A program made the position numbers and the translations under genes. Below, one piece after another: positions 2,066 to 20,271 of a DNA stretch of 64,000 bases (its first letter is position 1; the number at the start of each line of letters is the position of its first letter). The notes under the pieces were generated by a model. It had not been told where the DNA came from and did not search any database. It saw only the letters and a list, made by a program, of their open reading frames with translations. This stretch comes from a virus, in the IMG/VR virus record IMGVR_UViG_3300045988_175656. The stretch is one strand, 5' to 3'.

Positions 2066-2152
2066 TTAACAATTTTAGTTTTTATATATTGGAGACTATA
2101 CTTTAGAATATTACTCCTACCTCTTTATCTCTTTTTGTATAGTACAAAGATA
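2066..2152 (-). repeat. promoter-coupled conserved element, copy A (candidate sRNA unit)
   Basis: Read on minus strand: -7 box (caaagata 2145-2152), core GGAGACTATACTTT 2091-2104, TTAAC 2066-2070 after an exact 20-nt spacer. Confidence 0.75.
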
Positions 2153-2185
2153 GGGAAATTTTCGTTCCCTACCAAATTATTTTAG

Positions 2186-2407
2186 TTAATAAATGTCAAA
2201 TTTATACCCTAATTTATCTGCAAGTTTCTTTATATATTTTGCTGTTGGGTGCGGTGGATAATAGCCATGTACGGGTGTGACTGTTTTATTATGTTCATTT
2301 ACTAAACAAACTGAATAACCGCTATAATCTTCCATGAAATAACAATCTATCACATCATTTCCTTTGTATGAATATTCACTTCCTTTCACTTTTTTCAATG
2401 CTGCCAT
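2186..2407 (-). CDS. hypothetical early protein
   Basis: ORF track; ATG confirmed; TAccTTTG box at 2453-2460 upstream. Confidence 0.6.
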   Translation of the reverse strand: MAALKKVKGSEYSYKGNDVIDCYFMEDYSGYSVCLVNEHNKTVTPVHGYYPPHPTAKYIKKLADKLGYKFDIY

Positions 2408-2452
2408 AATTTATTTAATTTTTAATTGTTAGTATTCTTATTTTGATATATA

Positions 2453-2460
2453 CAAAGGTA
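2453..2460 (-). promoter_or_regulatory. -7 box TAccTTTG with hairpin between -33 and -7
   Basis: Minus strand reads TTTGgtaggtatcgggaaaatacctaccTTTG. The GGTAGGTAT/ATACCTACC stem is embedded in the promoter. Confidence 0.55.
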
Positions 2461-2503
2461 GGTATTTTCCCGATACCTACCAAATATTTTGAGTTAATAA
2501 AAG

Positions 2504-2809
2504 TTAATCTTCTTTGTTAAATTCTTCACTATCGTATATATCACCACATATAGACCACAATACCCAAACGGATAATTCTTCTTTATTCCATTTTTGTAGC
2601 TCTGTTTTCTCATGGCAACCATATTCAAGAATGTGGTTAATTAGTCTTTCTTTTGGTATTTTATCAAATTGCTTTTTGATTTCGGGTATTTCTATCCACC
2701 TTTGACAATCTTCTTCACAATCTCCACTATGGCAGCAATTTTCTACACATTCTCTACTTAGTTCAATTTCAAAGCTGTTATCTACATAGCCATAAAATAA
2801 ATTTTCCAT
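2504..2809 (-). CDS. Cys-rich hypothetical early protein (paralog of 3435..3734)
   Basis: ORF track. Shares the pattern E..EC..(E/N)C...W...(I/V)(K/L)KQF...E.L with the 3435 gene. Confidence 0.65.
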   Translation of the reverse strand: MENLFYGYVDNSFEIELSRECVENCCHSGDCEEDCQRWIEIPEIKKQFDKIPKERLINHILEYGCHEKTELQKWNKEELSVWVLWSICGDIYDSEEFNKED

Positions 2810-2911
2810 ATCTGTTATTTTTAATTGTTAGTACTTTAATTTTGATACAACAAAGGTAAATAAAAAAGGTGAACTATGCAAATAATTCACCTTATATTTT
2901 CTTCCTTTTAA

Positions 2912-3355
2912 CTATTTTTTAATAATCTCGTATCTATCTTTGTCCCACCTACTATTAAACCATTCATCCGCATTTTTATACAGACGTAAAGTATCAACGT
3001 TTAAGTTTCTATTAACGCATAATAGTTGGTGAATTGACTTGATAGATAAAAATTTCTTAATCATATCAACTGTTAGTGTATAATCGTCTCTATCAAGCAA
3101 ACAACACCCCGAACCGTTATTTTTTGTTGGAACATATTCAAAGCTACAACTCCATGAATAAAAGTCGTTTCTACCAATATAAAGTATTGTAGTTCCGTCT
3201 GTTACAAAAAACCACATACGATGATACATAGTATTAACTACACTTTCTTTTTCTTCTTCGGTTAATACCTTATGGAAATAAACAGTTAAACCTTCATCTA
3301 CACATTGATTTAAAAGGTTTACCAATTCTTTTTTAAATTCTTCTTTCATGCTCAT
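2912..3355 (-). CDS. hypothetical early protein
   Basis: ORF track; AGTTATG start context. Confidence 0.65.
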   Translation of the reverse strand: MSMKEEFKKELVNLLNQCVDEGLTVYFHKVLTEEEKESVVNTMYHRMWFFVTDGTTILYIGRNDFYSWSCSFEYVPTKNNGSGCCLLDRDDYTLTVDMIKKFLSIKSIHQLLCVNRNLNVDTLRLYKNADEWFNSRWDKDRYEIIKK

Positions 3356-3434
3356 AACTTATATTCTTTAATTGTTTATGCAAATGTAGGTATTTAATCA
3401 ATATGAACCAAATTATTTTAGTTAATAAATGTTG

Positions 3435-3734
3435 TTATATATCAGCCAATTCATCACTTACTTTAATACAACATTCGTACAATGCCCATTGAATTAATTC
3501 TCTACGTCCTAATTTTTTAACTTCTTCAAAAGATAATTCACATGGCATATCATAAACAAAAGTAGCTAATGTTTCATCTTTAATGAATTGAAATTGTTTC
3601 AATACCTTTTCATTCTTCATCCATTTTTCAACATTATCAGAATTAAATTCAATAGTACCACATTCCTTAATACATTCAAAAGGAAGTTCTACAAATATAC
3701 TATCATCTATACCAACTTTAATTAATACTTTCAT
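3435..3734 (-). CDS. Cys-rich hypothetical early protein (paralog of 2504..2809)
   Basis: ORF track 3435..3788 trimmed. A TAccTTTG box (3766-3773) lies inside the long ORF, so the ATG at 3734 (MKVLIKVG...) is the likely start. This gives 100 aa, similar to its 101-aa paralog. Confidence 0.6.
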   Translation of the reverse strand: MKVLIKVGIDDSIFVELPFECIKECGTIEFNSDNVEKWMKNEKVLKQFQFIKDETLATFVYDMPCELSFEEVKKLGRRELIQWALYECCIKVSDELADI

Positions 3735-3765
3735 ATTGTTTAATTTATTATTAATTTTACTATTG

Positions 3766-3773
3766 CAAAGGTA
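3766..3773 (-). promoter_or_regulatory. -7 box TAccTTTG
   Basis: caaaggta on plus strand, 32 nt upstream of ATG 3734. Confidence 0.5.
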
Positions 3774-3845
3774 TAAATTAGTTTTCATATATGCAAATAT
3801 AACATGAATTATTTATGTTAATAGTTCTTAATTTATTTATATTTT

Positions 3846-3929
3846 TTAACTAAAAATTATTATATCTATTGGAGACTATACTTTATATTGTTACATATAC
3901 CTCTTTGTTTTTCTTATAGTACAAAGATA
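3846..3929 (-). repeat. promoter-coupled conserved element, copy B
   Basis: -7 box caaagata 3922-3929, core GGAGACTATACTTT 3871-3884, TTAAC 3846-3850 (20-nt spacer). Confidence 0.75.
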
Positions 3930-3984
3930 AGAAAAAGGTATGACACTACCAAATAATATCATACCTTTAACATTATATTAACAT

Positions 3985-4209
3985 TTACTTATTTCCCACC
4001 ACTTCAATATATACATTGCATTTAGGATAGCATTTTTGTAACTTCCTTTGTGTTATTTCAGCCCTACTAAATGAATTATAATACTTTGGTGGGCGTGTGT
4101 CTGTATAAAACATGGTAGGTGGATTAAGGATAGGTTTATGTTTCCTATCCCACCTAACAAACACATAAGGAGTATAATTATAATTGACAAAAACCAAATA
4201 TTGTTTCAT
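3985..4209 (-). CDS. hypothetical early protein
   Basis: ORF track; 4-nt ATGA overlap with the upstream gene. Confidence 0.55.
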   Translation of the reverse strand: MKQYLVFVNYNYTPYVFVRWDRKHKPILNPPTMFYTDTRPPKYYNSFSRAEITQRKLQKCYPKCNVYIEVVGNK

Positions 4210-4784
4210 ACTGCATAATATTTACCGTTTTCTAAAAATTCATATAAATTAGCTTCGCAAATTTCGTTTAAATCTTCTTCTGATATTTCATAAAAGAAAG
4301 CATATCCATAATTTTCAAATTCTTTACATTTAGCAAAATACCATGCTTTTACATTTTCTTCAACTTTTTGTAAAATTTGTTCATGTTTAGGATTTTCATA
4401 ATTATCCTCAATTTCTATACTAACTGTATGTGCATGGCAATAATGATAATCAAACTTTGTGAATTTAATTTTTGAAATATCGTCACCTGCAATTTCTTTT
4501 TGTCTCTTTGTCAAACCTTGTGTAAAGATTTTCCAAATACGTTCATCAATACCATAGGTAGGAATTTCACCATACATACAAAAGCCGTCTCCTTGACAAT
4601 AGTCCAAAGAGAAACTTACTTTTAAAGTTTCAATGCCATATTCAGACTTTAATTCTTCTAAACAATCTCTTTCAAATTCAGACGGTTCTAAATTATTAAG
4701 CCACCATTGTTTCACAACTTCTTTTGCTTCACTTGACAGTTCATTAAATTTGTAAACCTTAATTTCTTTAATTTCTGTTCTCAT
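4206..4784 (-). CDS. hypothetical early protein
   Basis: ORF track, 192 aa; AGTTATG start context. Confidence 0.7.
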   Translation of the reverse strand: MRTEIKEIKVYKFNELSSEAKEVVKQWWLNNLEPSEFERDCLEELKSEYGIETLKVSFSLDYCQGDGFCMYGEIPTYGIDERIWKIFTQGLTKRQKEIAGDDISKIKFTKFDYHYCHAHTVSIEIEDNYENPKHEQILQKVEENVKAWYFAKCKEFENYGYAFFYEISEEDLNEICEANLYEFLENGKYYAV

Positions 4785-4908
4785 AACTCATATAATTTTT
4801 AATTGTTACTATCTTTATTTCTCTGTGACAAAGATAAGGCTTTTATTTGAATTGGCAAAATATATTAGAATATTTTTATGTTAATGATTATTAAATTTTT
4901 CACATTAA

Positions 4909-4987
4909 TTAACAAATTAAAATTAAATATATTGGAGACTATACTTTAAGATATTACTCTTACCTTTTTTCTTATACAACAAAGGTA
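4909..4987 (-). repeat. promoter-coupled conserved element, copy C
   Basis: -7 box caaaggta 4980-4987, core 4934-4947, TTAAC 4909-4913 (20-nt spacer). Confidence 0.75.
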
Positions 4988-5030
4988 CGAAATAAATCCG
5001 TACCTTACAAATTATTATGGTTAAAAGATG

Positions 5031-5192
5031 TTACCAAATACAATAATAATAGTTACCACTTCTCACAATCTCACTTGCTTTATCCCAACCGTAAAGTTTT
5101 TTCATACCTTTTAAACTCCCTGTCGTTGAGCAACTTGTATATCTCTTATCACTTAAATAAGATGATATTTTCTTTGTACTAATATATTTCAT
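5031..5192 (-). CDS. small hypothetical protein (53 aa)
   Basis: Own translation MKYISTKKISSYLSDKRYTSCSTTGSLKGMKKLYGWDKASEIVRSGNYYYCIW. AGTTATG context, 4 nt after the stop of 5197..5394. Below the ORF-track cutoff. Confidence 0.35.
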   Translation of the reverse strand: MKYISTKKISSYLSDKRYTSCSTTGSLKGMKKLYGWDKASEIVRSGNYYYCIW

Positions 5193-5196
5193 AACT

Positions 5197-5394
5197 TTAA
5201 TATTTTTCGTTACATATATTTTCTATCTCTTTAATTATGTTTTCTGTACTTATACCCGTTAATACTGTTATATCAGATAACAATTTCATAAGTTTATTGT
5301 AGTTCCTACTACCTTTTACGGACAAGTCACCATTTTTCTTAAACATTTGACTTTTATTATATCCTAAAGTTTTTAAGAGTTTTTCTAAATCCAT
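5197..5394 (-). CDS. hypothetical early protein
   Basis: ORF track; promoter hairpin/TAccTTTG upstream (about 5420-5450). Confidence 0.5.
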   Translation of the reverse strand: MDLEKLLKTLGYNKSQMFKKNGDLSVKGSRNYNKLMKLLSDITVLTGISTENIIKEIENICNEKY

Positions 5395-5471
5395 ATTTTT
5401 AATTGTTATTTCTTATGATACAAAGGTAGGGAAATTTCTATTCCCTACCAAATATTTTATGTTAATAAGAA

Positions 5472-6191
5472 TTAATATTCTTCACTTGCTTTCATAATTC
5501 CTTCAAGAAGTGATATTTCCTTAATATCAAAAAGATAGTATTCGTCCTGTGTATCATACGAATAATCACAATTATTACATATTTGTCCTTTTGCGTTAAG
5601 ATAAATCATTGTATCAACATTAATATAATCTTCAAGTTCTTCAATACTAATTTCTTTGGTGTAGTCTAATGTTTTCCAACCGCCTAATTCATATCCTCTG
5701 CCCTCTGAAATGATATTACGCACATTATATTCATCATTTCTAAGTGAGAAGAAAGAAAGCATGGAAAGAAATTGAATACTTTCTTTTTGTTCTTTTGGGT
5801 ATGTGTGGTAACTATCATTTGATAATTGTATCATTGATAAACATTCATCTTTATAATTTTGATACATATACATTTCAATCAATAAATGTATAAATTCTAA
5901 TGATTGGCAAGATTTTCTACCATTAACAACTATGTAAAAATTACTTACAGATATTTTTAATCTCTTCAATTCCTCTAATATAAAACGTATTGCAGGAATA
6001 TTTAGAGTAGGTTCACCACCTGTAATTGTAAGGCTACCAATTGAACTAATATCTTGTAATGCTTTTGTAATATATGCTTTATGTATATTTCTTTTTTGTG
6101 CTTCACCTCTTAAACAATGCGCACATTTCATATTACATTTGCGTGTTACTTCAATTGCCAATTCATTTAAAATTAATTTCTTCTTTTCCAT
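5472..6191 (-). CDS. radical SAM enzyme (short, twitch/SPASM-like C-terminal Cys motif)
   Basis: CNMKCAHC (CX3CX2C) near the N-terminus, LTITGGEPTL SAM-binding motif, C-terminal GQICNNCDYSY. Confidence 0.85.
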   Translation of the reverse strand: MEKKKLILNELAIEVTRKCNMKCAHCLRGEAQKRNIHKAYITKALQDISSIGSLTITGGEPTLNIPAIRFILEELKRLKISVSNFYIVVNGRKSCQSLEFIHLLIEMYMYQNYKDECLSMIQLSNDSYHTYPKEQKESIQFLSMLSFFSLRNDEYNVRNIISEGRGYELGGWKTLDYTKEISIEELEDYINVDTMIYLNAKGQICNNCDYSYDTQDEYYLFDIKEISLLEGIMKASEEY

Positions 6192-6310
6192 AACTTATTA
6201 TCTTTAATTGTTTGATACAAAGGTATGGTTTTTATTTGAATTATGCAAGCATTTATCATATTATTTTGTGTTAATAAAAGTTAATAGATTATAGTTAAAA
6301 TTATATAAAA

Positions 6311-6395
6311 TTAACAAAAATGCTACTGATATGTTGGAGACTATACTCTAATATTTTACTATTACCTATCATTTATTTCTGATAATACAAAGATA
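6311..6395 (-). repeat. promoter-coupled conserved element, copy D
   Basis: -7 box caaagata 6388-6395, core GGAGACTATACTCT 6336-6349, TTAAC 6311-6315 (20-nt spacer). Confidence 0.75.
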
Positions 6396-6443
6396 AGGAT
6401 AATAAATGGAATTACCAAATTATTATCCTTATTAAATGTTAAT

Positions 6444-6701
6444 TTATTTTTTATATATGTGTTCTTCCATAATTAGGCGACCATTTAAATCGTATGTGCG
6501 TTTAATGACTTCATCACTGTGAAATATTTCAGCAATTGAAATTGCTTTATCATCACTTTTACATTTTATTTGTGTGAAGTTTTCGCATAATACTTGTGTT
6601 CTGCCCCAATTGATTAGCCCAACATATCTATTATTTGGAATAAAACCTTTAGCACGTGTTTTAATTGCATAATAAACACCTTTAAAAACTCTTTTACTCA
6701 T
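6444..6701 (-). CDS. hypothetical early protein
   Basis: ORF track; AGTTATG start context. Confidence 0.6.
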   Translation of the reverse strand: MSKRVFKGVYYAIKTRAKGFIPNNRYVGLINWGRTQVLCENFTQIKCKSDDKAISIAEIFHSDEVIKRTYDLNGRLIMEEHIYKK

Positions 6702-6728
6702 AACTATACATTTTTAATTGTTACAAAT

Positions 6729-6941
6729 TTACCATATTCTTATGTTATAATCATTGAAATAGTTTTCAAGTTCTTTCAAGCCCTCTAAACTATGAATACC
6801 ACCATTTTTATCTTTTACTTCAATATCAATAGTTTCGCCATAGTCATTTGTTAATGCTATTTCAGAAGTAGAGAAAACCTCTTTTACAATGTTTACTACT
6901 TCATCATTATTCTTTTTCCCTTTTACGATATTTAATTTCAT
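6729..6941 (-). CDS. hypothetical early protein
   Basis: ORF track; AGTTATG start context. Confidence 0.55.
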   Translation of the reverse strand: MKLNIVKGKKNNDEVVNIVKEVFSTSEIALTNDYGETIDIEVKDKNGGIHSLEGLKELENYFNDYNIRIW

Positions 6942-7086
6942 AACTTAAAACTTTTAATTGTTAATACTATATGTTCTTTTTCTATATTACAAAGATACAA
7001 TAATCATTTGATATATGAAAGTATTTTGTGTTAATGAATATAAATTAATTCTTAAAAAATGTTAACTACTACTTGCGTTGAGGCTT

Positions 7087-7127
7087 ATAAAAATAGGGCT
7101 ATCTATTCATCACGAACTGATAACCCT
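7087..7127 (-). terminator. rho-independent terminator after 7159..7881
   Basis: Stem AGGGCTATC (7095-7103) / GATAACCCT (7119-7127), followed by a T-run on the minus strand. Confidence 0.5.
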
Positions 7128-7158: not shown

Positions 7159-7881
7159 CTAAATTATATTTTCCGTTAAGAATTTTTCCCCTTTTAAGTG
7201 TCTTATGTGCCCCTCATTATAAGTCATTGGTTTGGGATTAATAAAACAACTTTCAAAAGTAAATCTCGTATGTTTTCTATTATCTTGATTTTTATCAATG
7301 TTTTGTGTTTTAATGAATGAAGAGAAATACTGTTGAGTTAAATCATTTATTTTTACATCACCATTAAATTCCATATCAACATTACCATTTTGTGTAATAT
7401 ATTGTGGCATTCCGTTTGGTGCTTTTACCAATACACTATCTTGATTATACTTCTTACATAGATTAATTGCAAGATTTTTTAAAGCGTTAAAATCCTTTTC
7501 ATTTCCATTTCTATCGAAATTTAACACAATGTAAGAAGTTTCATATACTTGTTTTTCATTTTCAGTTCCTTTGTTTTCAATAAAACCACCAAAAACAGGT
7601 ACAAATGAAAATCCAGAATTTTTAATATCATTTAATAATTGTTTAGATAATTTATTATTGGTTTGATTATCATTTTCTCCACGAGAAGCTGATATGATTA
7701 TAAAACCGTTATTATAATGTTTACCTAACAATCTATCAACCGTCATTTCATTTAAAGGCTGTAAAGGAAATGTATTGGTATCACCTACTTCCATATATTC
7801 TTTGATAAGATTATATTGTTTAGCTAAATTAGTATTACATAACTTATCAAATTGTTCATTTATATTTTTTAAAATAGTCAT
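7159..7881 (-). CDS. hypothetical protein
   Basis: ORF track, 240 aa; no motif recognised. Confidence 0.7.
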   Translation of the reverse strand: MTILKNINEQFDKLCNTNLAKQYNLIKEYMEVGDTNTFPLQPLNEMTVDRLLGKHYNNGFIIISASRGENDNQTNNKLSKQLLNDIKNSGFSFVPVFGGFIENKGTENEKQVYETSYIVLNFDRNGNEKDFNALKNLAINLCKKYNQDSVLVKAPNGMPQYITQNGNVDMEFNGDVKINDLTQQYFSSFIKTQNIDKNQDNRKHTRFTFESCFINPKPMTYNEGHIRHLKGEKFLTENII

Positions 7882-7909
7882 AATTTATCTAATTTTATTA
7901 TATAAATAG

Positions 7910-7994
7910 TAGCTCTGATGGGAGTCGAACCCACACGTCTATAAAGACCTCAGTGTTTGAGACTGATGCGTACTACCAATTTCGCCACAGAGCC
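7910..7994 (-). tRNA. tRNA-Leu (anticodon CAA)
   Basis: Reverse complement is GGCTCTGTGGCGAAATTGGTAGTACGCATCAGTCTCAAACACTGAGGTCTTTATAGACGTGTGGGTTCGACTCCCATCAGAGCTA. It has a 7-bp acceptor stem, anticodon loop CTCAAAC, long variable arm (GTCT/AGAC) and T-loop TTCGACT. Confidence 0.9.
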
Positions 7995-10047: not shown

Positions 10048-10127
10048 TTAACTATTAATGTTAAAATATATTGGAGACTATACTTTAGTATTTTACTACT
10101 ACCTTTTCTTTTTCTATATCAAAGATA
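10048..10127 (-). repeat. promoter-coupled conserved element, copy E
   Basis: -7 box caaagata 10120-10127, core 10073-10086, TTAAC 10048-10052 (20-nt spacer). Confidence 0.75.
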
Positions 10128-10260
10128 AGGGAAATAATTGATATATACAAGTGTTTAACAGAGATTAACGTAATGTATTTTTATATGGCTTATATCAATG
10201 CTAAAAATGTATTTTAATGTTAATGAATGTAATTTGCTTGCGTATGTCAATTATAAATCT

Positions 10261-10916: not shown

Positions 10917-10953
10917 AATAGTTAGGGCTTGTGAAAGTCTTAACTATTTTTTT
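10917..10953 (+). terminator. bidirectional-looking terminator hairpin
   Basis: AATAGTTAGGGCT/AGTCTTAACTATT stem (2 G-U pairs) plus a T-run; an A-run lies on the other side. Confidence 0.6.
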
Positions 10954-10959: not shown

Positions 10960-11042
10960 TTAACTAAAAAAGTTAATATCTGTTGGAGACTATACTCTAT
11001 ATTATTACATATACCTTTTTATTTTTTCTTTATACAAATGTA
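10960..11042 (-). repeat. promoter-coupled conserved element, copy F (opposes flanking genes)
   Basis: -7 box caaatgta 11035-11042, core 10985-10998, TTAAC 10960-10964 (20-nt spacer). Confidence 0.75.
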
Positions 11043-11240
11043 AGCATTATATTTGATATATGCAAATTATTATCTAATTATTTTCTCTAAATTAAGTTTT
11101 ATTAATACAAAAATTGTTTTGTGTTAATGAATAATAAAAGAAAGTGCAAATGTATTGTAGTCTCAAATAAAGTTCTTATATTTGCAGTGTTGAAAGACAA
11201 AAGAATAAATTATATAATCAAACATTTAAAAATTATAGTT

Positions 11241-11943: not shown

Positions 11944-11987
11944 AAAGAAAGTCTGCTATCTGTTTGGATATGTCAGACTTTCTTTTT
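11944..11987 (+). terminator. rho-independent terminator
   Basis: AAAGAAAGTCTG (11944-11955) / CAGACTTTCTTT (11974-11985) plus T-run. Confidence 0.7.
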
Positions 11988-12067
11988 ATCTTTGTATATC
12001 GAAAATAAAAAAGTAATAGTAAAATATTAGAGTATAGTCTCCAACAGGTAAAATATAAAACTGTTAA
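11987..12067 (+). repeat. promoter-coupled conserved element, copy G
   Basis: -7 box TATCTTTG 11987-11994, core AGAGTATAGTCTCC 12029-12042, GTTAA 12063-12067 (20-nt spacer). Confidence 0.75.
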
Positions 12068-13884: not shown

Positions 13885-14235
13885 ATGAGTAAAAAATTCA
13901 AGTTATATGCAACAATAAAAGAAAATGTAGGCTATCAGTCTAATTTGAATAATAATAGAGACAGTTATAACAATGCGCTTTTCTTACTTCGTGGAAAAGA
14001 AATTGAGATAGAGACAGACTATTTGTTTCTTAATCAGTTAAACACTGCACCAATTAAAGATATTAGTAAGAACGGTTTAAGATTATATTTTAATGATATT
14101 AAGTCTTTAAGAATAGAAAACCGTACTTTTCGCACTATTAAAATGAGAGTGAAAAAGTTTTATAAAAGTGCTTGGGATGTTGATATTAAAGAACAACAAC
14201 TTAAAGGATATAAACTTTTATTAGGAATTAATTAA
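13885..14235 (+). CDS. hypothetical early protein
   Basis: ORF track; AAAGTTATG start. Confidence 0.6.
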   Translation: MSKKFKLYATIKENVGYQSNLNNNRDSYNNALFLLRGKEIEIETDYLFLNQLNTAPIKDISKNGLRLYFNDIKSLRIENRTFRTIKMRVKKFYKSAWDVDIKEQQLKGYKLLLGIN

Positions 14236-14278
14236 TTCTTATTAACACAAAATATTTGGTAGGTATTGAAAAAATACC

Positions 14279-14356
14279 TACCTTTGTTGTGTAAGAAAAA
14301 AGTAGGGGTAATATTCTAAAGTATAGTCTCCAACAGGTAAAATATAAAATTGTTAA
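14279..14356 (+). repeat. promoter-coupled conserved element, copy H
   Basis: -7 box TACCTTTG 14279-14286 (hairpin 14258-14282 embedded), core AAAGTATAGTCTCC 14318-14331, GTTAA 14352-14356 (20-nt spacer). Confidence 0.75.
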
Positions 14357-14428
14357 TAAATGCAAAAATTTTAATATTATTTAACATAAAAAAGTATTGA
14401 AATGTTTTGGTGTATCGAATATTATTCG

Positions 14429-15123: not shown

Positions 15124-15507
15124 ATGAAAAAATTATTATTTAATACATTATCAAGACAAACAAAAGAGCTTGAAAAAACGGCTAAAAATGCTATTTTAGC
15201 CTTATTAAATGAGATACCAAACAAAACATATCAGACTGATAAAATAGACGAAGAAAGAAATATAACAACCTATGATAATGAAAAATTTGCTTTTGTAGGC
15301 TGTTATATTGATAAAACAAAAGGCACATTTACATATAATCTACATGATGGGTTAAAGTTATTAGGCTATAAAATAATAAATGATAATGATATGATAAGCG
15401 AAATATTATACAATAAACTGTATGAAATAGAGCTTTTTAATATTGATAATATTCAACTATTAAACGTTATAAAATACATCAATGAGATAGAATTTTCTGA
15501 GGATTAA
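15124..15507 (+). CDS. hypothetical early protein
   Basis: ORF track. Confidence 0.6.
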   Translation: MKKLLFNTLSRQTKELEKTAKNAILALLNEIPNKTYQTDKIDEERNITTYDNEKFAFVGCYIDKTKGTFTYNLHDGLKLLGYKIINDNDMISEILYNKLYEIELFNIDNIQLLNVIKYINEIEFSED

Positions 15508-15550
15508 GATTTATTAACTCAAATAATTTGCAAGGTACGGATGTTCTTCG

Positions 15551-15558
15551 TACCTTTG
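15551..15558 (+). promoter_or_regulatory. -7 box TAccTTTG with embedded hairpin
   Basis: TTTGcaaGGTACGgatgttcttCGTACCTTTG, then the canonical leader. Confidence 0.55.
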
Positions 15559-15600
15559 TTGTATCAAAATTAAAGTACTAACAATTAAAAAATTAAAGTT

Positions 15601-15765
15601 ATGAAAAAGTTAAAATCTATTGAGCTTTACAGAAATTTTCCAGTTATAGACCAAAAACAAAATTCTAATTTTATTTTAAAATTATTTCCTTTTTTCTTTC
15701 AGAAATTAAAAAAAACAATGTGGATAGAAATACCTTTTGTTGGCGTTAAAATAGTAATTAATTAA
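15601..15765 (+). CDS. small hypothetical protein (54 aa)
   Basis: Own translation MKKLKSIELYRNFPVIDQKQNSNFILKLFPFFFQKLKKTMWIEIPFVGVKIVIN. Full canonical promoter, leader and AAAGTTATG start. Confidence 0.45.
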   Translation: MKKLKSIELYRNFPVIDQKQNSNFILKLFPFFFQKLKKTMWIEIPFVGVKIVIN

Positions 15766-15817
15766 TATTATTAACGAATAATAACATAGAATATTTGGTA
15801 GGGAACGGAAATTTCCC

Positions 15818-15825
15818 TACCTTTG
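15818..15825 (+). promoter_or_regulatory. -7 box TAccTTTG with embedded hairpin
   Basis: TTTGGTAGGGAAcggaaaTTTCCCTACCTTTG. Confidence 0.55.
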
Positions 15826-15868
15826 TATTATAAGAAATAAGAAGTACTAACAATTAAATTTTAAAGTT

Positions 15869-16084
15869 ATGGGATGTTTAAATGTTAAAAAGTATAACGC
15901 TATGCAAGCGGAACGGGAACAAGAATTTTTAAACAAGTTAGACCGTACAGGATTAACAGAAACAGATATTAAAAAAATGTGTGAAAGCTACTTTCCACGT
16001 ATTAACAAAAATTATGGCTTTGTTACGTTTGATAACAGAACTTGTGCAACTGAAATTCATTGGCACAAAAGAAAACCTTATTAA
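15869..16084 (+). CDS. hypothetical early protein
   Basis: ORF track; AAAGTTATG start. Confidence 0.6.
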   Translation: MGCLNVKKYNAMQAEREQEFLNKLDRTGLTETDIKKMCESYFPRINKNYGFVTFDNRTCATEIHWHKRKPY

Positions 16085-16127
16085 CAACAATTAACTCAAA
16101 TAATTTGGTGGGGAAAGAAATTTCCCC

Positions 16128-16212
16128 TATCTTTGTAATACAGAAAAGGAAACAAAGGTATAAGTAACATTATAGAGTATAGTCTCCAACATATTTAATA
16201 TAAAATAGTTAA
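16128..16212 (+). repeat. promoter-coupled conserved element, copy I
   Basis: -7 box TATCTTTG 16128-16135, core AGAGTATAGTCTCC 16174-16187, GTTAA 16208-16212 (20-nt spacer). Confidence 0.75.
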
Positions 16213-16286
16213 AAAATACTAATTAAATTAATAATTTTTAATACAAAATAATTTGTAAAATACTTGCATAATTGAAATATTATCTA

Positions 16287-16294
16287 TATCTTTG
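16287..16294 (+). promoter_or_regulatory. -7 box TAtcTTTG
   Basis: Followed by ATCAAAATTAAGAAGATTACTAACAATTAAATTTTAAAGTTATG. Confidence 0.55.
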
Positions 16295-16339
16295 TATTAT
16301 CAAAATTAAGAAGATTACTAACAATTAAATTTTAAAGTT

Positions 16340-16624
16340 ATGGCAAATTTCATTTTTCTTAAAAACGACTCTTATAATAGTCCCGTAGTTGCAAAATTGG
16401 CTGTTATTGAAATAGAAGGTGACTATGATTGGTGGCACATTAAAACACGCCCTATCAAGGCTACTAAACGAAATATAGAGCTTTTAAAACTCTATGCAAG
16501 AGAGAACACAACAGATTATATGTGTTGTGAATACGATTGCACAGGTAGCACTAAAAGAACATATAAAGTAAAAGTTAAAAAAGGTAAATGTTGGTTAATT
16601 GAATATGGTAGTGTAGATTGCTAA
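16340..16624 (+). CDS. hypothetical early protein
   Basis: ORF track; AAAGTTATG start. Confidence 0.6.
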   Translation: MANFIFLKNDSYNSPVVAKLAVIEIEGDYDWWHIKTRPIKATKRNIELLKLYARENTTDYMCCEYDCTGSTKRTYKVKVKKGKCWLIEYGSVDC

Positions 16625-16667
16625 CATTTATTAACATAAATAATTTGGTAGGTATCAGAGAAATACC

Positions 16668-16675
16668 TACCTTTG
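16668..16675 (+). promoter_or_regulatory. -7 box TAccTTTG with embedded hairpin
   Basis: TTTGGTAGGTATcagagaaATACCTACCTTTG. Confidence 0.55.
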
Positions 16676-16700
16676 TTTCAAACAATTAAAAAGAATAGTT

Positions 16701-16976
16701 ATGGAAGAAAAAATTAAACAATTTGTTAAACAGCTAAATGAAAAATATCCCGAATATGTAACATCATACACACAAGGGAAAAAGTTTTACAAAATATGGA
16801 GAACATTTGGCGTGCAGAAATGTATCTATTGTTTTGTAGATATGGACGGAAATATTTACAAAGCTGCAAGTATTAACGCACCCGCAAAACATATTAGAGG
16901 GCACATTTCAGAACCTTTTAAAGACAATTGTTGCGGACGTTACGGAATTAAGTATTTAAAAGGTCCTAACTTCTAA
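16701..16976 (+). CDS. hypothetical early protein
   Basis: ORF track. Confidence 0.6.
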   Translation: MEEKIKQFVKQLNEKYPEYVTSYTQGKKFYKIWRTFGVQKCIYCFVDMDGNIYKAASINAPAKHIRGHISEPFKDNCCGRYGIKYLKGPNF

Positions 16977-16987
16977 TTAAGTTTATT

Positions 16988-17027
16988 AACATTTGGTGAA
17001 GTGTAGTAGCCAAATGTTAATTTTTTT
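16988..17027 (+). terminator. bidirectional-looking terminator hairpin
   Basis: AACATTTGG (16988-16996) / CCAAATGTT (17010-17018) plus T-run. Confidence 0.65.
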
Positions 17028-17035
17028 AATATTTT

Positions 17036-17114
17036 TTAACTAAAAAAATATAGATGTGTTGGAGACTATACTCTAAGATATTACTCTTACCTTTTTTATT
17101 ACATTACAAAGATA
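17036..17114 (-). repeat. promoter-coupled conserved element, copy J (opposes flanking genes)
   Basis: -7 box caaagata 17107-17114, core 17061-17074, TTAAC 17036-17040 (20-nt spacer). Confidence 0.75.
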
Positions 17115-17273
17115 AGAATAATTTCTTTAAGTACCAAATATTTGATTAATTTTTATTGTTCATTAACACAATATAGTTTTAAAGTTAATTTTGTGTTAAA
17201 GATAGAAAAATACTTGTTTGGTATTGATATAATTCATACTTTTGTGCATATCAAAATTAAAAGCAATAAAGTT

Positions 17274-17546
17274 ATGAAAGCAAAAAATTACATTCCGCAA
17301 ATTTCTGTTTATTACAGTGAGAGAAACTATAATGACTATAATAACGCTATACAACAAGCTATAAAGCGTTTTAAAGAGTTTTATTCCCGTTTTGATAAAA
17401 GACTACTCACAACAAAGAAAAAAGTTAATGTGAACATAAAAGGGCACATTTTAAATGTGAATATTGACTTTAATAAAGTACATTATTCACAATGTTATGA
17501 GATAGTAAACTATAACGAAATAAAAGGGCTACAAATCAATTATTAA
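17274..17546 (+). CDS. hypothetical early protein
   Basis: ORF track 17142..17546 starts on TTG and spans a TActTTTG box (17237-17244). The ATG at 17274 has the AAAGTTATG context. Confidence 0.6.
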   Translation: MKAKNYIPQISVYYSERNYNDYNNAIQQAIKRFKEFYSRFDKRLLTTKKKVNVNIKGHILNVNIDFNKVHYSQCYEIVNYNEIKGLQINY

Positions 17547-17550
17547 AGAT

Positions 17551-17799
17551 ATGGCACGAAATATAAGTCTTTCAACCGTAGAGAAAATTTTTAATAATTT
17601 AGGTGATGTTAAATTAGAACCTAAAGTTTATAAACAAATTGAAAAAGAATTACGATTTGAGGGGAGAGATAAAAGGTTTGATTTATTTGTTGAGGCTGGC
17701 ACAAATAAATCTATGCTCTTTAAGTTTATGAAAAAAAGATACTATGTTTACTATGATTACAGTATTAATAAGTGGAAAGCTGAATATAATATAAGATAA
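17551..17799 (+). CDS. hypothetical early protein
   Basis: ORF track; begins 4 nt after the previous stop. Confidence 0.6.
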   Translation: MARNISLSTVEKIFNNLGDVKLEPKVYKQIEKELRFEGRDKRFDLFVEAGTNKSMLFKFMKKRYYVYYDYSINKWKAEYNIR

Positions 17800-17917
17800 A
17801 ATAATACTATGTTAATTTATAGTTAAATATAGGAAAATATTTGTTTGGTATTAATTTAATTCTTATCTTTGTACTATCAAAATTAAGGAAATTATTAACA
17901 ATTAAAAAATAAAAGTT

Positions 17918-18424
17918 ATGGCAATATTCGGAAATTTCGTAGGTAAAAAAGATTTAGAATTAACAAACGAAGAAAAAGAAATGTTTATGAATTTCTTCAA
18001 AATGAAACTTTTTAACTATCATAATTGCAATTTTGAAAAGGTATTAACAATTCAAAATGTAAAAGAAGAGTGTTATACAACTTTTACAGATTTTAAATCA
18101 TATTACTTTATTTTCAAGCCAAAAGAAAGTTTAAATGGGAGAAACGTTAAAAGAGATAGAGTTATTGATTTTTCGGGTATTTCTTTTATAATTCGCAAAG
18201 AAAGCGGTTTTTTAGAGATAAAAAATAAAGAAGAAAATATAAATACGCCCGAATTTCAATATTCTTTAAATATCCTTATTCAAGGAAAACAAATAAGGTA
18301 TAAATGTAGAAATATAGAAAGTATTTCTTTAAAAAATTCGTTTCAATTTGGTACTGAATTAAGCGATTTCGATTTTTCAGCTACTTTCTATGACTTATAT
18401 AGAACACTTTATGGCTTATATTAA
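17918..18424 (+). CDS. hypothetical early protein
   Basis: ORF track; AAAGTTATG start. Confidence 0.65.
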   Translation: MAIFGNFVGKKDLELTNEEKEMFMNFFKMKLFNYHNCNFEKVLTIQNVKEECYTTFTDFKSYYFIFKPKESLNGRNVKRDRVIDFSGISFIIRKESGFLEIKNKEENINTPEFQYSLNILIQGKQIRYKCRNIESISLKNSFQFGTELSDFDFSATFYDLYRTLYGLY

Positions 18425-18441
18425 TTAAAAATAAAATAGTT

Positions 18442-18636
18442 ATGAAAGAAAAATATTTTATAGTTGTAAACGAAACAAAGAAAGAAATATACTTTGCGTC
18501 TAAAAATCAATTCAGAGCACAACATTTTACAAAATTCATTTACCAAAAATATGATAAACATGTTTCCTGTGTGCCACGTTATTTGACGCAAAAAGAAATT
18601 GAAATGTATAAAGATATAATCAGTAAGAGAGGTTAA
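18442..18636 (+). CDS. hypothetical early protein
   Basis: ORF track. Confidence 0.55.
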   Translation: MKEKYFIVVNETKKEIYFASKNQFRAQHFTKFIYQKYDKHVSCVPRYLTQKEIEMYKDIISKRG

Positions 18637-18648
18637 AATAAATAAAAT

Positions 18649-18679
18649 GTTAAGAATTTGACTGTTCTTAACATTTTTT
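18649..18679 (+). terminator. bidirectional-looking terminator hairpin
   Basis: GTTAAGAA (18649-18656) / TTCTTAAC (18665-18672) plus T-run; A/T-rich on the other side. Confidence 0.65.
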
Positions 18680-18774
18680 AACTTATTTTTATATATAAAA
18701 AATAAAGCATAACGGAGACTATACTTTAGAATATTACTTCTACTTTTTCCCCCTTTTGGAACACTACAAAGATA
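18678..18774 (-). repeat. promoter-coupled conserved element, copy K (opposes flanking genes; 31-nt spacer variant)
   Basis: -7 box caaagata 18767-18774, core 18714-18727. The nearest TTAAC is 18678-18682 (31-nt spacer). CCG replaces CCAA after the core. Confidence 0.7.
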
Positions 18775-18931
18775 AGAAGAATATTTGAAACTAACAAATT
18801 TATTCCAATGATTAACATTTAATTAACTCTTAAAACGTATTGTGTTAATCAATATTAATAAATCACGTTTTATTTGGTAGATATAAAATTAATTCATATA
18901 TTTGCAATATCAAAATTAAAACAAAGAAGTT

Positions 18932-19402
18932 ATGGAAAAGAATTTAGAGTATTACAGAGAACAATGTCAAGAAATTGCAAACATGATTGCAAATGAAGTT
19001 ACGGACGCAAAAAGTGTTAAAGTTGATTGTGGCGGCTTTTGTCCTTACTTGTGCTTTATTAGAATAGACGCACTTGACAAAAAAGATTATATAAATAATA
19101 TATCAAATAATAGTATCTTTATAGATATTAAAATAGACTTTCAAGAAAATAAATTTGAACTGTTTAGAGATGGACACATTTACCTATCACCAAAGGATAA
19201 AAAAACACCACAATTTAAATATTTAGCTATGCGTGGTATGATTAATATTGCAGAAGAAAAAGGAGTTAAAAAAATGCGTAAAACAAAGCATAAAGACAAT
19301 AAAACAACCGCTAATAAAATAGCTCTTTACTTCAATGAAGTTATGAAAGCTGTAAAAGAATATACAGGCGGTTATCCTTACAGACAAGGAATCGAAGAGT
19401 AA
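18932..19402 (+). CDS. hypothetical early protein
   Basis: ORF track. Confidence 0.65.
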   Translation: MEKNLEYYREQCQEIANMIANEVTDAKSVKVDCGGFCPYLCFIRIDALDKKDYINNISNNSIFIDIKIDFQENKFELFRDGHIYLSPKDKKTPQFKYLAMRGMINIAEEKGVKKMRKTKHKDNKTTANKIALYFNEVMKAVKEYTGGYPYRQGIEE

Positions 19403-19483
19403 TTAACATTTATTAATACAAAAAATTTGGTAGGAATGAAATAATTTCCTACCTTTGTATCAAACAATTAAAGATAACAAGTT

Positions 19484-19702
19484 ATGGATAAAGAAAAAAT
19501 TATTAATAGTATTTGTATAGCTTGCAGAGCTACACAAGGCGGTACTTTAAAGTTTGGTACAGGCGGTTTTGTAGATTTTTCTGTAAGTTGGGATTATCAA
19601 TGTAATTTTGACATTTTTAATCTTAAAACAAAAAAACATCACTTTTGTAGCACTTTAGGCACAGCCGTTGAAATTGTTGAAAAATTATTAACAGAAATAT
19701 AA
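19484..19702 (+). CDS. hypothetical early protein
   Basis: ORF track. Confidence 0.55.
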   Translation: MDKEKIINSICIACRATQGGTLKFGTGGFVDFSVSWDYQCNFDIFNLKTKKHHFCSTLGTAVEIVEKLLTEI

Positions 19703-19745
19703 CATTTATTAACTCTAAAAATTTGGTGATATGAGATAAAAGTCG

Positions 19746-19753
19746 TACATTTG
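19746..19753 (+). promoter_or_regulatory. -7 box TAcaTTTG driving an ORF-free unit
   Basis: Preceded by TTATTAACTCTAAAAATTTGG, the usual upstream element. Confidence 0.55.
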
Positions 19754-19759
19754 TAATAA

Positions 19760-20176
19760 AGAAATACAACTAACAGAAAAAGAGATTAAGTATTAATTTT
19801 AATAATGTCTAAAAATGGAAACAAATAAGCCACCGCCCTAAAAAGGTTATTTAAATTTGATAATATAAGATAGAATAATTTAATAGCTACGAAAACTAAC
19901 AAGGTACGCAAGTTTAAAGAGTAAAAAGTTTTAGAACGTACTGCATTAAGCGAAAAAGCTATGCCACCACAGTATTAAGTTTATAACATTATAATATATA
20001 GAGTAATTTAATTTATATTTAATTTTAACTTTCCGCTGTTTGCGGACTAAAAACATAAGTATGCACTTAATTAGAGATAAGACCATATAAAAATTATATG
20101 TAATATAGAATGAATTTATAGATTAAGAAAATAAGGCAAAAGCTCTGATAATACCGTCATTTATCAGAGCTTTTTT
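19760..20176 (+). ncRNA. candidate non-coding RNA of about 420 nt (function unknown)
   Basis: Canonical promoter at 19746-19753 and terminator at 20141-20176. The longest plus-strand ATG ORFs I found encode no more than 9 aa. Nested complementary segments: ATAGCT 19883-19888/AGCTAT 19957-19962, GTACG 19904-19908/CGTAC 19937-19941, TCCGC 20032-20036/GCGGA 20042-20046. Confidence 0.4.
20141..20176 (+). terminator. bidirectional-looking terminator hairpin
   Basis: AGCTCTGATAA (20141-20151) / TTATCAGAGCT (20161-20171), flanked by an A-run and a T-run. Confidence 0.75.
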
Positions 20177-20187
20177 AATTACAGTTT

Positions 20188-20271
20188 TTAACATTTTTTA
20201 TAAGTACGTGACGGAGACTATACTTTAAAGTTTTAACCTTACCTCTTTGTTTTTCTTACACTACAAAGATA
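20188..20271 (-). repeat. promoter-coupled conserved element, copy L (opposes flanking genes)
   Basis: -7 box caaagata 20264-20271, core 20213-20226, TTAAC 20188-20192 (20-nt spacer). Confidence 0.75.

Follow-up and report, generated by a model that had tools for sequence, protein, structure and literature searches.

Twelve early-region copies of a promoter-coupled hairpin cassette in an uncultured gut megaphage

Organization of the twelve cassettes

The window analysed here is a 64,000-nucleotide stretch of DNA from an uncultured gut megaphage (IMG/VR record IMGVR_UViG_3300045988_175656). It contains 12 exact copies of ARAGTATAGTCTCC, against 0 expected from dinucleotide-preserving shuffles. 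The preliminary description had reported nine of these cores on one strand and three on the other, and all 12 were recovered with exactly the same coordinates and strands. Each core belongs to a cassette, the parts of which follow one another in the order of its own promoter (P1), a covarying hairpin, a near-invariant stretch of 12-13 nt and a DNA site, GTTAA, exactly 20 bp further on. P2 denotes the gene promoter next to a cassette.

2066-2175, minus strand: cassette 1; P1 2145-2175, hairpin 2104-2119, core 2091-2104, 20-nt spacer, GTTAA 2066-2070; co-oriented with minus-strand genes
3846-3952, minus strand: cassette 2; P1 3922-3952, hairpin 3884-3899, core 3871-3884, GTTAA 3846-3850; P2 at about 3766-3797, in tandem with the P1 unit
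4909-5010, minus strand: cassette 3; P1 4980-5010 (spacer containing a terminator-like hairpin), hairpin 4947-4962, core 4934-4947, GTTAA 4909-4913; P2 at about 4829-4860
6311-6418, minus strand: cassette 4; P1 6388-6418, hairpin 6349-6364, core 6336-6349, GTTAA 6311-6315; P2 at about 6218-6248
10048-10150, minus strand: cassette 5, first unit of the leftward arm; P1 10120-10150, hairpin 10086-10101, core 10073-10086, GTTAA 10048-10052
10960-11065, minus strand: cassette 6; P1 11035-11065, hairpin 10998-11013, core 10985-10998, GTTAA 10960-10964; opposed to plus-strand neighbours, leading into a bidirectional hairpin at 10917-10948
11964-12067, plus strand: cassette 7; P1 11964-11994, hairpin 12014-12029, core 12029-12042, GTTAA 12063-12067; arranged in tandem with gene 12177's promoter
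14256-14356, plus strand: cassette 8; P1 14256-14286 (spacer containing an extra hairpin, 14258-14282), hairpin 14303-14318, core 14318-14331, GTTAA 14352-14356; P2 14405-14436
16105-16212, plus strand: cassette 9; P1 16105-16135, hairpin 16159-16174, core 16174-16187, GTTAA 16208-16212; P2 16264-16294
17036-17137, minus strand: cassette 10; P1 17107-17137, hairpin 17074-17089, core 17061-17074, GTTAA 17036-17040; opposed, leading into the convergent terminator hairpin that belongs to gene 16701-16976
18678-18797, minus strand: cassette 11; P1 18767-18797, hairpin 18727-18742, core 18714-18727, 31-nt spacer, GTTAA 18678-18682; opposed, followed by a terminator hairpin and divergent from the promoter of gene 18932
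20188-20294, minus strand: cassette 12; P1 20264-20294, hairpin 20226-20241 (loop UUAAAA), core 20213-20226, GTTAA 20188-20192; opposed, followed by a GC-rich terminator hairpin and divergent from the promoter of gene 20429

All copies lie within 2.07-20.3 kb, the early region. With all filters switched off, a covariance model gives the 12 cassettes 55-66 bits; the next match falls below 10 bits and none lies beyond 2.07-20.3 kb, in line with the earlier view that they are confined to the early arms. The counts of 8 cassettes co-oriented with the flanking genes and 4 opposed were obtained again. The early region is rich in terminator hairpins, and the opposed copies lead straight into strong bidirectional ones, which would give RNAs of about 100-130 nt. 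The statement that no copy overlaps an ORF has to be corrected: two cassettes are overlapped by short TTG-start ORFs of 45-52 aa (2027-2185, plus strand; 14228-14365, minus strand). These ORFs are probably not genes.

Every copy in this genome is preceded by a Bacteroidota-type promoter (TTTG...TAnnTTTG), as had been noted; the distance to the core, given earlier as 33-45 nt, is 31-40 nt in the 12 copies when recomputed from the end of the -7 box.

Relatives and sequence conservation

Gut metagenomes yielded more than 200 distinct copies, on contigs of 215-400 kb that come from uncultured phages or mobile elements. The near-invariant block reads GTATAnTCTCC, with a conserved ARAGG and conserved loop letters upstream of the core, and the base after the block is a purine in 91% of copies. 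The core is thus invariant, as first described, within this genome but not in relatives, where position +8 is G in 181, A in 20 and T in 12 copies and the first base changes from A to G, covarying with its stem partner.

In 156 of 165 copies the hairpin is preceded, at a distance of 12-35 nt, by a -7 box, and the leader between P1 and the hairpin is purine-rich and 11-20 nt long. In one related clade, sigma54-like promoters drive the element instead. Because the -7 box is near-universal yet replaceable by a sigma54 promoter, transcription appears to be required, without a particular promoter or a fixed distance.

Orthologous genes have the cassette upstream in either orientation, and about one-third of all copies are directed away from genes. 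In the commonest layout (99 of 190 copies), the next promoter is reached without an intervening terminator. One copy, from a Muribaculaceae MAG, combines a promoter of its own with a strong intrinsic terminator; its predicted RNA is about 125 nt long, with a folding z-score of -4.3, and the copies of L196, L251 and L258 resemble it. GTTAA at +20 is absent from the copies of L141, L196 and L251 and of the sigma54 clade, all of which end in terminators or U-runs and look more like small RNA genes.

A hairpin on the promoter-sense strand

The 20 nt before the core had been called semi-conserved. They are conserved, but as a 5-bp stem with a hexaloop, G-U-R-A-n-A, and the first A of the 14-mer closes the stem. 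Loop positions G1 and A6 are conserved and the fifth base is free. Pairing is complete in all of 25 diverse copies. Of 192 distinct motif matches, 165 are hairpin-intact with every pair formed; most of the remaining 27 are chance matches. The variable stem pairs occur as three to four pair types each, and the outermost pair alternates between U-A and C-G. The hairpin is established by this covariation. By itself the stem has marginal stability, at +0.1 to -2.2 kcal/mol for the copies of the window and -2.8 on average for 213 copies, and no other conserved structure was found across the copies.

Counted on the strand transcribed from the promoter, G.U/U.G pairs number at least 31 and A.C pairs 1. 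Because wobbles are tolerated and A.C is almost absent on this strand, the functional form is single-stranded and promoter-sense. Such covariation supports the options on the RNA side, either a small-RNA family or a nut/put-like leader acting on RNA polymerase, both proposed at the outset. The proposal of a phage-RNAP promoter read from the opposite strand is not supported, as the wobbles become mismatches there and no fitting promoter geometry is seen.

Rigid spacing and phased arrays

As first reported, GTTAA stands at a fixed 20 nt in 11 of the 12 copies and at 31 nt in the 18.7-kb copy. Among 165 copies, the offset is +20 in 114, +21 in 8 and +31 in 11, so that the downstream spacing is rigid, unlike the variable upstream distance to the promoter. 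Since GTTAA occurs only about once per 120 bp, both strands counted, its fixed placement is not due to chance. The 20-nt spacer is homologous between orthologous copies, AT-rich and drifting by point mutation, with its length constrained and its sequence free.

Between GTTAA and the TTAAC that follows it, the gap takes discrete values of 12-13, 23-25 or 32-34 nt, and no complementarity between the two was found outside the pentamers. Of 707 promoters, 318 have TTAAC at -13 relative to the -33 box, 164 have it at -23 and 134 at -34, and TTAAC/GTTAA arrays with 10-11-bp phasing flank nearly half of the promoters in these phages. Judged by this pattern, GTTAA is a DNA-level site within helically phased arrays. 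The earlier idea of a binding-site array for a DNA-binding protein may suit the GTTAA part but fails to account for the covariation of the hairpin.

Possible modes of action

We tentatively favour, at somewhat less than an even chance, an opsX-like role in which the cassette would be a promoter-proximal, hairpin-stabilised pause or capture signal read by the transcribing host RNA polymerase. P1, mostly sigmaA-type and sigma54-type in one clade, would start transcription, and after the purine-rich leader the nascent RNA would fold the 5-bp hairpin in the RNA exit channel. The polymerase would stop at the CC closing the core, with the hairpin ending 13-14 nt behind the RNA 3' end. In the bubble (-11 to -1), the exposed non-template strand would then be GTATAnTCTCC. 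ARAGG, together with the loop letters, would form the upstream duplex and the spacer the downstream duplex gripped by the enzyme (+2 to +20), and GTTAA, the first site of the phased protein-binding array, would lie at its front edge. Once halted, the complex might load a factor or release a short RNA, or it might be held there, roadblocked or poised. We infer the pause, its position and any loaded factor from the hairpin, strand, promoter coupling, invariance, spacing and arrays described above. The invariant block of 11-12 nt has the size of a transcription bubble, and the marginal stem fits because it is expected of an exit-channel pause hairpin rather than of a self-standing structure. However, the elemental pause consensus is only partly matched (G falls at -11, or at -10 should the pause come one base sooner; -1 is Y; and +1 is a purine where the consensus has G). 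The loop sequence is conserved, and ordinary pause hairpins need no conserved loop sequence. The one-third of copies facing away from genes, like the occurrence of either orientation at orthologous genes, is odd for an operon-directed polymerase modifier; neither the window nor a set of 50 conserved neighbour families yielded a NusG/KOW or RNA-binding protein; and the copies of L141, L196, L251 and the sigma54 clade, with small-RNA-gene-like ends, lack the +20 site.

These last copies suit the main rival, which is possible but on balance unlikely: the cassettes would be genes for multicopy free-standing small RNAs, made early by the host polymerase, the hairpin and invariant tail serving as a protein-titrating or recruiting platform or as a seed for one conserved target RNA, with copy number giving dosage. 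Each unit has its own promoter irrespective of gene orientation, opposed copies, the MAG copy and the copies that resemble it would yield short terminated RNAs, the weak hairpin implies a bound partner, and a multicopy seed-type family, FopS, is known from Bacteroides in 14 copies (PMC11697453). The rigid 20-bp distance to a DNA-level site and the helical phasing are left over by this explanation, as are the 99 of 190 copies without a terminator ahead of the next promoter; moreover, the window offers no complementary target, E. coli rRNA is complementary only to the degree expected by chance, the single hairpin is the sole conserved structure, and no RNA-binding protein was found nearby. A nut-like antitermination site, at which a boxB-like hairpin and a boxA-like linear element would bind an RNA-binding antiterminator and Nus factors to make the polymerase terminator-resistant, is improbable, although the element stands just past early promoters in both divergent arms of a terminator-dense region. 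The lambda boxB loop has a GNRA-like fold; the hexaloop, with G1 and A6 conserved and the free fifth base extruded, may be compatible with such a fold, and the pyrimidine run followed by AACA is perhaps loosely rrn boxA-like. But 4 of the 12 copies here and about one-third overall face away from genes into terminators, the boxA consensus is unmatched, the early ORFs include no evident arginine-rich N-like protein, the fixed GTTAA distance is left over, and lambda has two nut sites rather than one per 1-2-kb unit.

The strand-specific, G.T-tolerant covariation would equally fit single-stranded non-template DNA, either an N4 virion-polymerase-type hairpin promoter or an R-loop origin or nick site that the host promoter merely unwinds. 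The purine-rich leader may favour RNA-DNA hybrids, AT-rich DNA with iteron-like phased pentamers follows the core, and by eye the core is like the T7-class TATAG start motif. This is nevertheless very improbable: five mostly A-T pairs around a 6-nt loop make too weak a stem for extrusion from duplex DNA, N4 promoters differ in their 3-nt loops and in needing no host promoter, 12 origins in 18 kb are implausible, TTAAC arrays occur at nearly half of all promoters and not just at cassettes, and the window showed no sign of a phage RNA polymerase. Solitary CRISPR repeat units are known from phages, and the order of hairpin, fixed handle and exactly 20 variable nt, with a promoter for each unit, recalls a crRNA-like guide or a CRISPR-repeat mimic acting as an RNA anti-CRISPR. 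The guide-like scaffold suggested earlier is extremely improbable, however, because the 20-nt segments are drifting homologues and not unrelated spacers, stems vary among copies of one genome, and the spacing is dictated by the DNA site. No tandem, CRISPR-like array of the motif appeared in scans of viral and metagenome sequences and of one genome per species for 185,579 species.

Comparison with known systems

Searches of Rfam families, the literature and deposited phage genomes returned no match to the cassette. It matches no described RNA family and, in our comparison, most resembles the polymerase pause-and-load sites of Bacteroides. With N4 virion-RNA-polymerase promoters it has in common a short hairpin followed by conserved bases, strand specificity and several copies in a phage early region, but N4 hairpins have 3-nt loops and GC-containing stems, no preceding host promoters, and are all directed at the genes that they serve. 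Like lambda nut sites and rrn leaders, the cassette has a 5-bp hairpin with a purine-rich loop and an adjoining conserved linear element just past early promoters in divergent arms, and the order of hairpin first and linear element second is that of rrn leaders. However, its sequences are unlike theirs, its loop has 6 bases, its copies are many, their orientation is independent of operons, and no lambda N-like protein was found here. FopS and GibS, multicopy small RNAs of Bacteroides (PMC11697453), resemble it as a multicopy short-RNA family with canonical sigmaA-type promoters and an invariant single-stranded segment. In contrast, FopS is present in Rfam, lacks a 5' hairpin, ends in a terminator in every case and is chromosomal rather than phage-borne.

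opsX elements are recruitment sites for UpxY/NusG paralogs in capsule-operon leaders of Bacteroides, with a multipartite signal of about 40 bp that comprises upstream duplex DNA, non-template bubble DNA and a pause hairpin, stabilised by NusA, that extends to -9 to -14 (Saba et al. 2024, PMC11685472). The phage cassette differs in its bubble sequence, which is unlike the opsX/ops YGCGNAGCR mini-hairpin, in its 12 copies per genome, all of them under promoters of their own, in the one-third directed away from genes, in having no adjoining NusG paralog gene, and in its DNA site at a fixed +20, which opsX lacks; pausing at the cassette is only predicted. Nevertheless, the two share host phylum and polymerase and a position in a transcribed leader soon after a sigmaA-type promoter. 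In both, a small nascent-RNA hairpin ends about 9-14 nt ahead of a fixed point and is followed by about 12 nt of highly conserved, bubble-sized sequence, and about 40 bp are conserved in total, including the hairpin-encoding DNA.

Occurrence and layout of the cassette in the window

The cassette comprises its own promoter (P1), a purine-rich leader, a 5-bp hairpin, a core of 12-13 nt, a 20-nt spacer and the pentamer GTTAA. The preliminary description had assigned 12 occurrences of the 14-mer ARAGTATAGTCTCC to the window, and all are found exactly at the positions and on the strands it gave, whereas shuffled sequences yield none. Allowing up to three mismatches in ARAGTATAGTCTCC adds only matches at chance level within the window. 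When a covariance model is run on the window with filters off, the 12 copies score 55-66 bits and the next match less than 10 bits, and so the family is discrete and limited to 2.07-20.3 kb. As had been claimed, a TTTG...TAnnTTTG promoter precedes every one of the 12 copies; the distance from its -7 box to the start of the core is 31-40 nt rather than the roughly 33-45 nt first proposed. GTTAA, which has a background frequency of about one per 120 bp with both strands counted, does lie at +20 in 11 of the 12 copies and at +31 in the 18.7-kb copy, and eight copies do share the direction of the flanking genes, the remaining four being opposed. A tiny ORF in the cassette transcript was rejected, since neither a start codon nor a reading frame is conserved there. 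The finding is real and statistically unambiguous, and it is richer than was originally described.

The hairpin and the core

The 20 nt in front of the 14-mer, previously regarded as merely semi-conserved, form a hairpin, 5'-UAnnn / GURAnA / n'n'n'UA, whose last stem A is the first base of the 14-mer; the core is taken here without this base. At the level of sequence, the reality of the hairpin is proved by covariation. All 125 pair cells in 25 diverse copies hold standard pairs, compensatory changes occur at three pairs, and shuffled and slid controls are far lower; RNAalifold returns the same helix. In 165 distinct copies collected from public contigs, GC, AU, UA, GU, UG and CG all occur at the variable pairs, and mutual information reveals the three variable stem pairs alone and no further covarying pair. 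The outermost pair is U-A in 187 copies and C-G in 26, the switch being seen in GC-richer relatives. A pseudoknot or long-range pairing was rejected, since loop-to-downstream pairing fails, with A-C as the commonest combination.

Real elements contain at least 31 G.U or U.G pairs versus essentially one A.C pair. Because G.U and U.G are tolerated and A.C hardly at all, the strand that pairs is the one transcribed from the upstream promoter, and on this wobble asymmetry the earlier suggestion of a promoter read from the other strand was rejected. An opposite-strand promoter using GTTAA as its upstream element was also rejected, the aligned copies showing no fitting -33/-7 geometry. In 156 of the 165 copies, the hairpin follows a -7 box at a distance of 12-35 nt. 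The stem-only energy ranges from +0.1 to -2.2 kcal/mol in the window and averages -2.8 kcal/mol over 213 copies; the stem alone is marginal, and a partner or the co-transcriptional setting must stabilise the hairpin. In the hexaloop G-U-R-A-n-A, G1 and A6 are conserved and the fifth base is free.

Because the original scans demanded an exact core, the fetched loci were rescanned with a relaxed one. At position +8 of the core, 181 copies have G, 20 have A and 12 have T, and a few other single changes occur, so that the core, initially called invariant, is near-invariant. G3 and C12/C13 are invariant, and the following base is a purine in 91% of copies and G in only 33%. No covariation of +8 with any other position was found. 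The core is accompanied by a conserved A-R-A-G-G upstream and a semi-conserved R-W-C-A-Y-R-Y downstream.

The downstream DNA site and the promoter arrays

Of the 165 copies, 114 have GTTAA at +20; it also occurs at +21 (8 copies), +31 (11) and +40 (3), and the +31 copies keep a decayed TnTAA at +20. The gaps from GTTAA to the next TTAAC cluster at 12-13, 23-25 and 32-34 nt. These quantised gaps and the non-complementary flanks, together with the promoter arrays and the core-to-promoter distances described next, mark GTTAA as a site in DNA rather than one side of an RNA helix; GTTAAT...ATTAAC was likewise rejected as an RNA hairpin, complementarity ending at the pentamers. Across 707 distinct sigmaA-type promoters from the early region of the window and the fetched relative loci that carry the element (L001-L269), the start of TTAAC precedes the -33 TTTG by 13 nt in 318, by 23 nt in 164 and by 34-35 nt in 134. 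The TTAAC pentamers are thus a helically phased array upstream of promoters. GTTAA, the inverted form, is most frequent at -18, -29 and -52. The TTAAC array has the look of a UP-like element or of an array of activator sites.

Core-to-next-promoter distances are quantised as well (about 62, 73, 86, 108 and 119 nt). A tandem order, P1 > element > array > P2 > gene, where P2 is the promoter of the neighbouring gene, is seen in 99 of 190 evaluable copies, and a divergent order, element < P1 [array] P2 > gene, in 24, with 75-77 or 86-87 nt between the two -33 boxes. The others show both arrangements (12), neither (33), or no P1 under a strict regular expression (22). Orthologous genes in different phages have the cassette upstream in either orientation.

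GC-rich hairpins of the form TTTG-GTAGGn...nCCTAC-CTTTG are found within the spacer between -33 TTTG and -7 TAnnTTTG, an arrangement in which one gene's terminator seems to be merged with the promoter of the gene that follows. Terminator-like sites number 21 versus 3.9 expected.

Hairpins within promoter spacers of the window
2149-2173, minus strand, spacer hairpin
4982-5006, minus strand, spacer hairpin
14258-14282, plus strand, spacer hairpin
15797-15821, plus strand, spacer hairpin
5425-5449, both strands, spacer hairpin
16647-16671, both strands, spacer hairpin

Early genes also have a 5' leader, AACAATTAAA-N8-11-AGTTATG, at 18 sites between 2430 and 22318 of the window, and late genes are without it. 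It may be a translation or regulatory signal particular to the early class.

Examples of the early-gene leader in the window
10292, 14483, 16320 and 17897, plus strand, AACAATTAAA leader
6212, 4807 and 3376, minus strand, AACAATTAAA leader

Distribution in relatives

Pattern scans detected the element in IMG/VR contigs of 215-380 kb and in smaller ones, and more than 100 metagenome contigs carry it, two of them 382 and 399 kb long and some from human-gut assemblies. It is absent from deposited phages (50,697 records) and plasmids. No deposited phage resembles the window, and identity with Lak phages was rejected, the NAD-dependent ligase being just 29% identical. Rfam 15 covariance models run on the window and on L141, a locus of a Muribaculaceae MAG, overlap no copy at gathering score or E<=10. 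In the literature, the motif strings give unrelated primer or oligonucleotide matches only, and topic searches show no account of the element. The cassette is a conserved, hitherto undescribed, self-promoted hairpin-plus-core unit with a fixed downstream DNA site, distributed across a large group of uncultured gut phages. It ranks among the most conserved non-coding features of these widespread 215-400-kb gut phages or mobile elements.

The MAG contig is JAFYSL010000006.1 (L141 3125-3260, minus strand), and its copy is the sole one in a bacterial-looking context, next to aminotransferase and ABC-ATPase genes. Because it lies 221 nt from the contig end, an adjoining mobile element is possible. 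This copy has its own promoter, a UUCG-capped 5' hairpin, the element and a strong terminator, and its core UCUCCA is able to pair with a downstream UGGAGG. In a sub-clade at 37-42% G+C, the element stands under sigma54-like promoters (TGGCAC-N5-TTGC) and is followed by AACCTRCCC and a U-run. Sigma54-like promoters dominate the loci of this related phage or mobile-element clade (L152, L160, L179, L198, L223 and L246), each locus having 4-13 of them; the window and the main-clade loci checked (L024, L170 and L199) have 0-1.

Gene content and neighbouring proteins

The window has a G+C content of 26% and encodes a BACON-domain tail protein, a tail fibre, a UvrD-like helicase with intein inserts, a thymidylate synthase, a NAD-dependent ligase, a ClpB-like ATPase, a SAM lyase and an RNA ligase. 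Its early region has two divergent arms with about 40 small orphan genes in total, and the early-region proteins are orphans by our searches. Clustering of 1,808 ORFs near elements yields no family tied to the element. Searches of the 50 neighbour families and of the window proteins gave no NusG_N, KOW or RNA-binding domain; the window is 64 kb of a genome of at least 215 kb, and related contigs are up to about 400 kb long. The most widespread element neighbour (22 loci, 59 database homologues) is a 156-aa protein with a confidently predicted fold (pLDDT 92.7) that matches nothing significantly in the PDB and falls into no Pfam or PHROG family. The early arm contains tRNA-Leu(CAA) and a SAM-lyase-like protein, the latter probably anti-restriction.

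Selected genes of the window
7159-7881, minus strand, SAM-lyase-like protein
7909-7994, minus strand, tRNA-Leu(CAA)
18932-19402, plus strand, 156-aa element neighbour
20429-20869, plus strand, SprT-like protein
40071-44054, minus strand, UvrD-like helicase with two intein/homing-endonuclease inserts (Hint + LAGLIDADG)
44189-44677, minus strand, weak Cro/C1-type HTH protein
47480-48643, minus strand, thymidylate synthase match split by an insert of about 55 aa
61490-62098, minus strand, NUDIX hydrolase
62236-63039, minus strand, ion-transport-family protein

Possible functions of the cassette

The reading that we tentatively rank first, at somewhat less than an even chance, is a co-transcriptional pause or capture site. 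Transcription comes from any promoter over a variable distance; the hairpin is very weak but never broken; an invariant block of 11-12 nt starts a few bases past the hairpin; and a spacer of fixed length and free sequence runs up to a protein site at the DNA level. All five properties, namely strand-specific structure, the need for transcription, a weak unbroken hairpin, an invariant block and a fixed spacer, match the footprint of a halted elongation complex, and this fit, together with the architecture of opsX, the pause-and-load sites of Bacteroides capsule operons, is the reason for the ranking. If RNA polymerase stopped at the terminal CC of the core, the hairpin would end at -13 or -14, the invariant block would be the bubble from -11 to -1, +1 would be the base that is a purine in 91% of copies, the 20 bp would be the downstream duplex within the enzyme, and GTTAA would lie at its front edge. 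Against a pause site, no NusG-like or RNA-binding protein is found in the window or near elements, the commonest neighbouring protein is without a structural match, the bubble is unlike that of opsX, and one third of the copies face away from genes, which is unexpected of a site that modifies polymerase for an operon.

That orientation independence, and the terminators after opposed copies, would be accounted for by a free-standing multicopy small RNA, a possible but more doubtful reading for which the FopS family is a precedent and which also explains the terminator-ended copies in L141, L196 and L251; it leaves the 20-bp rule and the terminator-less tandem arrangement unexplained. No targets were found in the window, where core 8-mers are absent elsewhere (0 versus about 8 expected), a deficit that avoidance of TAG words may confound. 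Mimicry of or pairing with rRNA was rejected, the match to E. coli 16S, 23S and 5S being at chance (29 of 200 shuffles are as good). A lambda-type nut site is unlikely: it has the hairpin geometry in common, including the 5-bp stem of boxB, and the G-U-R-A-n-A loop is compatible with a putative GNRA-like fold, but the copies lack an CGCUCUUA-like boxA match, no N-like arginine-rich ORF is evident among the early ORFs, and the four of 12 opposed copies count against it. Still less probable are functions in single-stranded DNA, as an N4-type promoter or an R-loop origin, given the weak AT-rich stems and TTAAC arrays that are general to promoters; an N4-type promoter has a 3-nt loop and an extrudable stem of 5-7 bp and faces the early genes, whereas the loop here is 6 nt, the window stems are marginal, and four of the 12 copies are opposed to genes. 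A guide-like or CRISPR-mimic RNA is very improbable, because the 20 nt drift as ordinary intergenic sequence, stems vary between copies of one genome, and, in a check for CRISPR repeats across viral, metagenome and genome collections, the copies were always dispersed at intervals of 1-2 kb and never formed arrays.

It is conceivable, though we consider it doubtful, that the cassette is an undescribed self-promoted "poised polymerase" or nascent-RNA regulatory unit, or else a new abundant class of early phage RNA with a host target conserved across Bacteroidales. A poised-polymerase unit could stand in either orientation next to a gene promoter and would couple an RNA hairpin, a bubble-sized invariant DNA/RNA segment and a phased TTAAC-binding array, in effect forming a transcription-dependent enhancer or insulator for early megaphage genes. 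Should the cassette be a pause or capture site, control of Bacteroidota RNA polymerase in the manner of opsX would reach beyond eight chromosomal operons into the early transcription of phages, with the fixed downstream protein site as a new component; as a small RNA, the cassette would represent a new multicopy early phage transcript whose target is conserved across hosts. Either reading offers a compact, testable handle of about 60 bp on phage takeover of a host with poorly understood transcription, and the cassette also reveals a regular promoter architecture in the phased TTAAC arrays.

Comparison with opsX and other pause sites

An opsX site spans about 40 bp and combines a pause hairpin that reaches -9 to -14 and is stabilised by NusA, the non-template DNA of the bubble, and upstream duplex DNA of specific sequence (PMC11685472). 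Like opsX and ops, the cassette lies in a transcribed leader, tens of nt after a host promoter and on the promoter-sense strand. In opsX, 9-14 nt separate the end of the hairpin from the 3' end of the paused RNA downstream; the cassette hairpin would end at -13/-14, assuming a pause at CC. The elemental pause consensus (G at -10/-11, pyrimidine at -1, G at +1) is matched in part, +1 being G in only 33%. Unlike class 1 opsX and RfaH ops, the core GTATAnTCTCC is without a GCG..AGC-type mini-hairpin; class 2 opsX likewise has no non-template mini-hairpin (PMC11685472). The bubble sequence of the cassette is unrelated to that of opsX. An opsX site is encoded together with its NusG paralog and stands ahead of a long operon in the same direction, whereas no cognate NusG paralog was found in the window or the 50 neighbour families, and 4 of 12 copies are opposed to genes. 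In its anatomy the cassette is closest to opsX-type pause sites, and it is a candidate member of that family.
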